64,000 nucleotides of DNA from an uncultured Planctomycetia bacterium (GTDB lineage: Bacteria; Omnitrophota; Gorgyraeia; Tantalellales; Tantalellaceae): contig CAYPCX010000001.1 in assembly GCA_964409365.1 (NCBI GenBank), forward strand, positions 202,075-266,074. Direction: 5' to 3'. The position numbers and the translations under genes were made by a program. Of the stretch, positions 42,837 through 43,177 are shown piece by piece. The first letter of the stretch is position 1. Each line of letters opens with the position of its first letter. The notes beneath the pieces are model-generated. The model made no database searches. It was not told where the DNA came from and was given only the letters and a program-made list of their open reading frames with translations.

Positions 42837-43100
42837 GTCCCCGTAGCTAAATGAGACTACAAGTTACGGGAGCGAAGCAGCCGTAACTTGTAAAGTCGAA
42901 TTTATGCAAAGCGTTTAAACTAGCGTCCCCGTAGCTAAATGAGGCCACAACTTAAGGAGCGAAGCGAACAGAAGTTGTAAGGCCGAATTTATGCGAAGCA
43001 GGTTCAACTGGTGTCCCCGTAGCTAAATGAGGCCACAACTTAAGGAGCGAAGCGAACAGAAGTTGTAAGGCCGAATTTATGCGAAGCAGGTTCAACTGGT
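42837..43100 (+). repeat. Three tandem 88-bp structured repeat units, each beginning with the first 12 nt of the downstream tRNA-Arg
   Basis: The GTCCCCGTAGCT anchors lie at 42837, 42925, 43013 and 43101, an exact 88-nt period. Units 2 and 3 are identical. Unit 1 differs, and its changes keep both the inner and outer hairpin stems base-paired. Confidence 0.85.
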
Positions 43101-43177
43101 GTCCCCGTAGCTCAGCTGGATAGAGCGACTGCCTCCTAAGCAGTAGGTCGTGCGTTCGAATCGCGCCGGGGACGCCA
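43101..43177 (+). tRNA. tRNA-Arg (anticodon CCT)
   Basis: Cloverleaf GTCCCCG acceptor stem, D-loop AGCTCAGCTGGATAGAGC, anticodon loop cTCCTAa, T-loop GTTCGAATC and encoded CCA. Confidence 0.9.

Follow-up and report, generated by a model that had tools for sequence, protein, structure and literature searches.

The tRNA-Arg(CCT) locus and its repeat array

The window, i.e. the whole stretch of 64 kb that was analysed, belongs to an Omnitrophota lineage and contains a sigma-70 family gene, an array of tandem repeats and an intact tRNA-Arg(CCT) gene, which is followed by its own terminator (Table 1). The 12-mer GTCCCCGTAGCT, which corresponds to the first 12 nt of the tRNA, occurs exactly four times in the 64 kb, at 42837, 42925, 43013 and 43101, with a spacing of 88 nt; four matches have been reached in 0 of 100 shuffles. 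TRF reports a tandem repeat with a period of 88 bp and 3.3 copies that spans 42826-43112, and both ARAGORN and Rfam place the tRNA at 43101-43177; the exact matches and the three programs thus bear out the sequence-only reading, which had described the 12-mer as recurring every 88 nt, with its fourth occurrence being the genuine tRNA.

The units of the array share one layout: nt 1-12 of the tRNA, a hairpin of 57 nt and a leader of 19-20 nt. The hairpin begins with AAATGAG, continues with a 3-bp stem, a stem of 7-11 bp and the loop GAGCGAAGC(G)A, and is completed by the two return arms and CGAATTTAT. Units 2 and 3 are identical, as had been claimed, and unit 1 is approximately 80% identical to both, i.e. 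it differs at about 20% of the positions; the tRNA nt 1-12 and AAATGAG are unchanged between the diverged units 1 and 2, a stretch of 19 nt (GTCCCCGTAGCTAAATGAG) is the same in every unit, and all four leaders in the window are homologous. Single units fold well (z = -5.0 and z = -2.2).

Three full units are present, as originally described, but the array is longer, since a fourth, 5'-truncated unit abuts the end of the sigma-70 gene: the 36-nt block that consists of the leader and the 12-mer is present four times, first at 42813, and, 7-19 nt past the sigma stop codon (42790-42792), the stretch at approximately 42799-42811 can be aligned with the hairpin's 3' flank, which together identify a unit that is devoid of the 5' arm and the loop. 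Between units 1 and 2 there are three double substitutions, one in the inner stem (g-c to c-g) and two in the outer stem ((G)ACT/AGT(C) to (G)GCC/GGC(C)), and to this extent the compensatory changes noted earlier are real; an additional c>a / g>t compensation does not exist, and the 3' arm of units 2 and 3, quoted as (CC)tTAAgTTGT, had been misread. The arm actually reads ACAGAAGTTGT, and the inner stem of these units has therefore 7 bp only.

Table 1. Location of the features of the tRNA-Arg(CCT) locus, of the second array of the window and of a further hairpin type in related loci (L numbers)
Feature	Position	Strand	Basis
Sigma-70 family gene, 289 aa, directly upstream of the array	41923..42792	+	Pfam Sigma70_r1_2, r2, r3, r4
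Unit 0, 5'-truncated: remnant of the hairpin 3' flank and leader (to 42836), tRNA nt 1-12 copy 1 (42837-42848)	42811..42848	+	Repeat search and alignment
Unit 1 hairpin: AAATGAG, ACT, ACAAGTTACGG, loop, CCGTAACTTGT, AA, AGT, CGAATTTAT	42849..42905	+	Fold -29.6 kcal/mol, z = -5.0; covariance model 83.6 bits
Leader copy (42906-42924) and tRNA nt 1-12 copy 2 (42925-42936)	42906..42936	+	Repeat search
Unit 2 hairpin: outer stem GCC/GGC, inner stem ACAACTT/AAGTTGT	42937..42992	+	Covariance model 81.3 bits
Leader copy (42993-43012) and tRNA nt 1-12 copy 3 (43013-43024)	42993..43024	+	Repeat search
Unit 3 hairpin, identical to the unit 2 hairpin	43025..43080	+	Sequence comparison, covariance model
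Leader directly upstream of the functional tRNA	43081..43100	+	Repeat search
Intact tRNA-Arg(CCT), its first 12 nt being the right end of the array	43101..43177	+	ARAGORN; Rfam RF00005 65.8 bits
Canonical intrinsic terminator of the tRNA, 12-bp stem and T run	43184..43221	+	Terminator scan
Second tandem array of the same hairpin family, 84 bp x 2.1, 98% matching, no tRNA sequence	22949..23121	-	Covariance model and TRF
TWCGCC/GGCTNC hairpin	L037 3953-3996, L068 4013-4061, L086 4771-4815, L088 842-895
TWCGCC/GGCTNC hairpin, further loci	L021 3574, L031 3455/3567, L066 3983/4117, L070 2956, L072 3893, L079 4786

Several identities of the units have been considered and rejected. There is no ORF in the array, the small reading frames that start from the ATG of AATGAG being 3-13 codons long and unconserved. 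The promoter and terminator scan of 42600-43400 has returned no sigma-70-type promoter and, as its sole terminator, the one after the tRNA, so that the units contain neither kind of module. Rfam, searched at gathering thresholds (window and 18 loci) and in E-value mode (region), has matched the tRNA alone, and ARAGORN likewise detects the real tRNA only, which speaks against a tRNA gene, a pseudogene or a tRNA-like RNA. The units are not decayed copies of the whole tRNA either, as the Smith-Waterman comparison with their own tRNA is not significant overall (p = 0.2-0.9 for the units of the window), and they do not form a CRISPR array, as its 52-nt ‘spacers’ would be homologous hairpins that are 80-100% identical.

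Other repeats of the window are the heptamer CCTGAAA, present 4.9 times just before the sigma start codon (41888-41921) and also found in L001, and a perfect tandem repeat of 48 bp x 1.9 at 7748-7840. The intergenic region downstream of the tRNA terminator holds two palindromes (GGGGGAAACC...GGTTTCCCCC) and an 18-bp inverted repeat (43278-43299, 43391-43432 and 43464-43484); as many matches as are found there, in 43278-43484, have been obtained in 0 of 100 shuffles, and comparable G/C-capped palindromes are located after the tRNA in L026 and L032.

Conservation and covariation of the hairpin

The earlier argument that the stems are maintained has been tested on homologues, and it holds across six and then 15 distinct sequences. 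In the six distinct homologous hairpins from which the covariance model was built, 95.7% of the cells are paired and 8 of the 16 pairs have changed on both sides, the observed value being reached by 0 of 500 shuffles. In the 15 distinct homologues, whose alignment was fitted to the covariance model, a caveat on its covariation, again 95.7% of the cells are paired, with 13 of the 16 pairs changed on both sides; the covariation score or the percentage of paired cells was reached by 0/500 shuffles and the count of 13 pairs by 1/500. Slid controls pair only 24-39% (24-38% with the six sequences). One-sided changes of a pair are absent among the 15 sequences (0), and G.U pairs occupy two of the 233 cells, both on the sense strand. 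The conserved head of the hairpin is (A/C)AATGAG and its conserved foot is CGAATT(T/G)AT.

Copies of the hairpin in the window and in related loci

The second array of the window is matched by the covariance model at 22973-23039 and 23057-23123, on the minus strand, with 63.7 and 63.8 bits (E ~1e-13). It lies within the spacer that separates a Na/Pi-cotransporter-PhoU gene from an IMPDH-family gene (Pfam on the flanks), antisense to both, and its 84-bp unit is bounded by AAGTGAG/AAGTAGG microhomology. Five full copies of the hairpin thus occur within the 64 kb, at two loci and on both the plus and the minus strand, and since the second array is free of tRNA sequence, neither the hairpin nor its tandem habit needs an integrase.

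In related loci, the covariance model has identified a 126-bp tandem repeat (x 1.9) upstream of the sigma gene in L010, and the hairpin follows nt 7 of the tRNA in L074 and nt 10 in L071. Inverted copies also occur, with their AATGAG end abutting nt 1, which belongs to the tRNA itself in L032 and to a fragment of a tRNA in L027, and both orientations are represented across L010, L027 and L032. A homologous hairpin is located after tRNA nt 19 in L007, as part of a 243-nt unit whose second copy is interrupted by the end of the contig, and after nt 23, at the contig end, in L027. In L019 and L032, a single hairpin extends from the sigma stop codon, with GCT before it. The hairpin is also found upstream of another gene: in L082 it precedes tRNA-Arg(CCG), whose nt 1-25 match those of the window tRNA, and the junction GTCCCCGTAGCT|AAATGAG is present together with a homologous leader. 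This locus was the one real match of a metagenome scan with the 19-mer junction, two further matches being due to chance, and three scans of IMG/VR for the junction or the hairpin have returned chance matches only.

Additional repeats have been observed in three related contigs. In L082, an inverted repeat (GGCGACACGTCAGG...CCCGACGTGTCGCC) encloses approximately 170 nt just before the tRNA-Arg(CCG) array (6680-6930, minus-strand reading) and has no Rfam match. In L027, a run of GGCACAAAAAA-type repeats (3560-3720) lengthens the C-terminus of the sigma factor, and 59-bp repeats in the style of classical REPs (GTAGGGGCGAAA...TTTCGCCC) are located at 3732-3879. In L030, and only there, a Y1_Tnp-like ORF (a weak match, E = 6e-4, below the Pfam cut-off) lies between the sigma gene and the tRNA, with GTAGGGGCGGGG palindromes on its flanks (3411-4001).

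The sigma-tRNA interval across Omnitrophota

The search with the sigma protein has provided 80 loci, all from MAGs of Candidatus Omnitrophota. The order sigma gene, tRNA-Arg(CCT) is kept in about 47 of the 80, with apt between the two in deeper clades, and the spacer between sigma and tRNA ranges among relatives from 1 nt to more than 1 kb. L001, a near-identical assembly, matches the window at 100% in the 4.1 kb upstream and at 99.2% on the downstream side, but has two full units instead of three; the proposed variation of unit number between strains is therefore seen in two near-identical assemblies. The hairpin has a patchy distribution on the sigma tree, with several close relatives having spacers of 1-56 nt and no hairpin.

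Copies of nt 1-12 of the respective genome's own tRNA, located upstream of it and directly followed by a hairpin, occur in L021, L031, L035, L037, L058, L066, L067, L070, L079 and L081, where two further hairpin types are involved, one of which is otherwise common as a tRNA 3' trailer that begins at CCA. In the 17 upstream copies across Omnitrophota, which were ascertained by at most one mismatch in the 12-mer (about 0.03 copies in total being expected by chance), identity to the copy's own tRNA is 98% over nt 1-12 but only 59% over the 12 nt of leader before them, the leader being essentially unrelated in 7/17 copies. Hairpin junctions are found after tRNA nt 7, 10, 12, 18, 19 and 23/24. In L051, L067, L070 and L007 the hairpin is followed by the continuation of the tRNA sequence, which makes the hairpins there insertions into longer tRNA 5' fragments, and isolated 9-nt tRNA matches in L037 and L070 likewise indicate insertion into tRNA fragments. 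The arrays of L070, L082 and L007 mix different hairpin types.

In several tRNA genes, of Arg and Thr, the CCA is where a conserved hairpin with the order 6-bp stem, TWCGCC, variable insert, GGCTNC and return stem begins (Table 1). Upstream of the gene, this hairpin has also been found joined without a gap to tRNA-Arg nt 1-12 or 1-7; it belongs to no Rfam family. In three loci, tRNA-Arg(CCT) is cut off just past the anticodon loop and continues with the common motif CGCTGTAATTACGTT (L020 3399-3440, L038 3366-3410 and L056 5509-5550), with no intact tRNA within reach. An HTH_17-like ORF and then an AAA_21 (AbiEii-like) ATPase are located beyond the truncated tRNA of L020, and a group I intron has been considered for the truncated tRNAs of L020 and L038 and rejected, as Rfam gives no match.

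The interval between a housekeeping sigma gene and tRNA-Arg(CCT) is thus a hotspot of rapid structural change in Omnitrophota: palindromic repeats and tRNA 5' fragments are gathered there, along with an integrase subfamily by which the 5' part of tRNAs is replaced and not, as is usual, the 3' part. Such repeats also break the short-read assemblies of these uncultured genomes, and several related contigs stop inside them.

Origin of the array

Our preferred reading, to which we assign a probability of roughly 0.55, is that the array has arisen at the DNA level, by tandem amplification of a REP-like palindrome that carried the tRNA leader and the first 12 nt of the tRNA along with it, and is not a set of RNA genes. 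The core of the unit would be one member of a dispersed, hairpin-forming, REP-like family of extragenic repeats of this Omnitrophota lineage, and the ancestral arrangement would have been similar to that of L019 and L032: sigma stop codon, GCT, hairpin, leader, tRNA-Arg(CCT). Slipped-strand or unequal sister recombination could then have occurred between this GCT and the GCT at nt 10-12 of the tRNA, a misalignment that would duplicate the 88-bp block ‘hairpin + leader + tRNA nt 1-12’; the number of units would afterwards be altered by unequal crossovers among them, and the first unit would lose its 5' arm. The tRNA fragment would be a passenger in this process, with the intact tRNA at the right end remaining functional. 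The mechanism of slippage and the order of events are what we infer from the arrangement of the loci.

Because GCT precedes the single hairpin of L019 and L032, the junction GTAGCT|AAATGAG carries a microhomology of 3 nt. The homologous leaders and the hairpin 3' flank before the array are as tandem duplication predicts, and slippage with unequal crossover accounts for these leaders, the truncated first unit, the identity of units 2 and 3 and the difference between two and three units. Further copies of the hairpin are present in L010, L032, L027, L071 and L074, some of them inverted, and no Rfam family, promoter, terminator or integrase remnant offers another account of the units. The reading is also supported by the second, tRNA-free array with a microhomology of its own and by the almost purely Watson-Crick covariation. 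The suggestion of the sequence-only reading that the units are remnants of duplication at the tRNA, possibly following integration events, fits the data.

Other observations are less readily accommodated by amplification. The sharp edge of identity at tRNA +1 (98% vs 59%) is unexpected from neutral tandem duplication and would be predicted by an att core or by selection; the junction GTCCCCGTAGCT|AAATGAG and a homologous leader are also found at tRNA-Arg(CCG), in L082; and the mixed hairpin types of the L070, L082 and L007 arrays are not produced by simple duplication. In addition, the term ‘dispersed’ rests on few copies, at two loci of the family in 64 kb, the head motif is AATGAG and not the GT[AG]G of classical REPs, and there is no RAYT gene in the window.

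The edge at tRNA +1, the arrays with mixed hairpin types, the patchy occurrence along the sigma tree and the module at tRNA-Arg(CCG) would all be explained if the units were scars of serial site-specific integration by tyrosine-integrase elements at the 5' part of tRNA-Arg, which we consider a possible but, as an account of the whole array, not a probable origin. Such elements would carry a copy of the tRNA leader and 5' end, so that the old leader and nt 1-12 would be displaced upstream as attL; the hairpin would be the left end of the element, e.g. a terminator or an insulator right after the att core; the cargo and the integrase would later have been deleted, and the mini-units duplicated by unequal exchange between the cores.

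In Omnitrophota, a source of such tRNA 5' fragments has been demonstrated, since elements of this kind are found in related loci. In L051, tRNA-Arg nt 1-18(24) are present as a direct repeat 1.2 kb upstream, flanking a DUF4258/DUF2283 toxin-antitoxin pair and half of an integrase, and this C-terminal half of Phage_integrase (E = 3.5e-17) runs into the tRNA 5' end. The L051-type integrase has 310 homologues, mostly from Omnitrophota and mostly truncated, at the N-terminus in most copies of the subfamily. In 10/10 loci with DNA (L051, L085-L088 and L254-L258), the 3' end of the integrase gene is located 1-19 nt from the 5' end of a tRNA on the same strand or overlaps it, the tRNAs being Arg-CCT (L051 and L088), Thr-CGT, Gln, Pro and Phe, and 7/120 homologues end by reading through the tRNA 5' end; more distant relatives, with 36-40% identity, are canonical 3'-end integrases. 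A copy of tRNA-Pro nt 1-36 is located 2.1 kb upstream in L257, in the chimeric acceptor stem of the L254 tRNA-Thr a 5' strand of the element type faces a mismatched 3' strand, and the viral contig L259 reads integrase stop codon, 7 nt, and tRNA nt 1-38 only, which is an attP-like arrangement with the 5' part of a tRNA. Integration that replaces the 5' end of tRNAs seems common in Omnitrophota. Tandem cases and, more rarely than 3' ones, 5'-terminal cases are also known from the Islander collection, where 159 of 3919 islands have 5' tDNA fragments and 125 cases are tandem (PMC4383910).

The array itself, however, carries no trace of an integrase or cargo, and neither do the small units (tblastn with 11 integrases of the family); units of 88 bp are too small to serve as free circular substrates, the hairpin is also tandem at a locus that has no tRNA or att-like sequence, and the four leaders of the window are all homologous. 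No case has been found of the hairpin ending an integrase-bearing element, and the hairpin is absent from IMG/VR. Integration scars are nevertheless a serious rival or complement to amplification as regards the way in which the tRNA 5' fragment first came to lie upstream.

Two more speculative readings, which we regard as doubtful, concern the association of hairpin and tRNA start: the hairpins could be miniature mobile elements that are recognised as single-stranded or cruciform DNA, prefer the D-arm-coding region of tRNA-Arg genes for insertion or recombination and are mobilised in trans by the tRNA 5'-end integrases or a Y1 transposase, or else the ‘tRNA start + hairpin’ could be a selected insulator against read-through from displaced tRNA starts. 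If the former were true, the hairpins would represent a new tRNA-targeting class that builds arrays of fragment and hairpin.

The compensatory changes between the units had been taken as a sign that the repeats are maintained as folded RNA, possibly as co-transcribed small RNAs or modules processed with the tRNA. As functional modules of a sigma-tRNA co-transcript, the units could protect the 3' end of the sigma mRNA after RNase P cleavage, act as decoy 5' ends that compete for the 3' acceptor strand of the tRNA and tune its maturation, or be released as separate small RNAs. Co-transcription is plausible, given that there is no terminator between sigma and tRNA and that the spacer is 1-9 nt in some relatives; furthermore, the hairpin is conserved across species, with covariation, nt 1-12 and AAATGAG are invariant between units 1 and 2, the two G.U cells are on the sense strand, and in the predicted minimum free energy structure of the entire spacer an upstream 12-mer is base-paired with the 3' acceptor strand of the tRNA, a prediction that is in itself no evidence of function. 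Against these points, the family occurs antisense to its flanking genes, in an array that is free of tRNA sequence, and in both orientations beside tRNAs; G.U pairs (2/233) and one-sided changes are nearly absent; the hairpin is patchily present among close relatives and unstable in copy number; and Rfam is silent, with no promoter or terminator inside the units, so that small RNAs have no positive evidence in their favour. Maintenance as folded RNA is therefore an unsupported conclusion, and we consider a functional RNA unlikely. The combination of Watson-Crick-only covariation, both orientations, extragenic sites and a tandem habit fits better with a REP-like family of DNA palindromes, and the hairpin is probably constrained as DNA and not as RNA. 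For annotation this means that covariation is not in itself proof of an RNA gene: a repeat that is structured, compensatory and linked to a tRNA can belong to a family of DNA palindromes that has been amplified beside the tRNA.

It is very improbable that the array or its copy number is an artefact of short-read metagenome assembly, as might be suspected from the identity of units 2 and 3, from L001 (MEGAHIT k141) having one unit fewer and from the contigs of L007, L027 and L066 ending inside such repeats, since the divergence of about 20% between units 1 and 2 makes at least two distinct units real, the same architecture is present in two independent assemblies and a diverged form of it in many MAGs, and k = 141 exceeds the 88-bp unit.

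Comparison with known repeat systems

Tandem repeats next to tRNA genes have a precedent in tyrT of E. coli, where units of 178 bp (approximately 3.14 copies) follow tRNA-Tyr, each of them including the last 19 bp of the tRNA. As in the window, the tandem units flank a tRNA gene and each carries a terminal piece of it, an arrangement that is consistent with unequal recombination; the tyrT repeats are, however, located on the 3' side, include the 3' end of the tRNA and code for a small basic peptide, whereas the units of the window are located on the 5' side, include the 5' end and lack a conserved ORF. ICE/CIME accretion and the ssrA islands of Dehalococcoides provide displaced tDNA fragments and tandem islands of a comparable kind.

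The islands mobilised by integrases, as collected by Islander (PMC4383910), resemble the locus in that an intact tRNA is accompanied by direct repeats of its terminal segment in the same orientation, several times: in the window, tRNA-Arg(CCT) is intact and is preceded, on its own strand, by three exact copies of nt 1-12 as cognate fragments. A related integrase subfamily of the phylum is also situated at tRNA 5' ends, including that of tRNA-Arg(CCT), in related loci only and not in the window. The locus differs from the islands in that the fragment comes from the 5' end, as in about 4% of the Islander islands (PMC4383910), in that the array contains no integrase or cargo and has intervals of 76 nt instead of kilobases, and in that the sequence between its repeats is a dispersed palindrome that is also found away from tRNAs.

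The hairpin has the following features in common with the REP, BIME and REPIN sequences: it is a short imperfect palindrome with unpaired, conserved head and foot motifs, it occurs in intergenic regions at several loci and in both orientations, sometimes clustered or in tandem, and its stems co-vary by Watson-Crick pairs. Unlike REPs, the family of the window has the head AATGAG...CGAATT instead of GT[AG]G and a longer hairpin, of about 57 nt, in which two stems are accompanied by an internal loop of the tandem G.A type; its copy number is so far low (five full copies at two loci in 64 kb), and many copies are joined to 5' fragments of tRNA-Arg. The 64-kb window contains no RAYT gene. With these likenesses and differences considered, the array is best explained as a variant of kinds of repeat that are already known.
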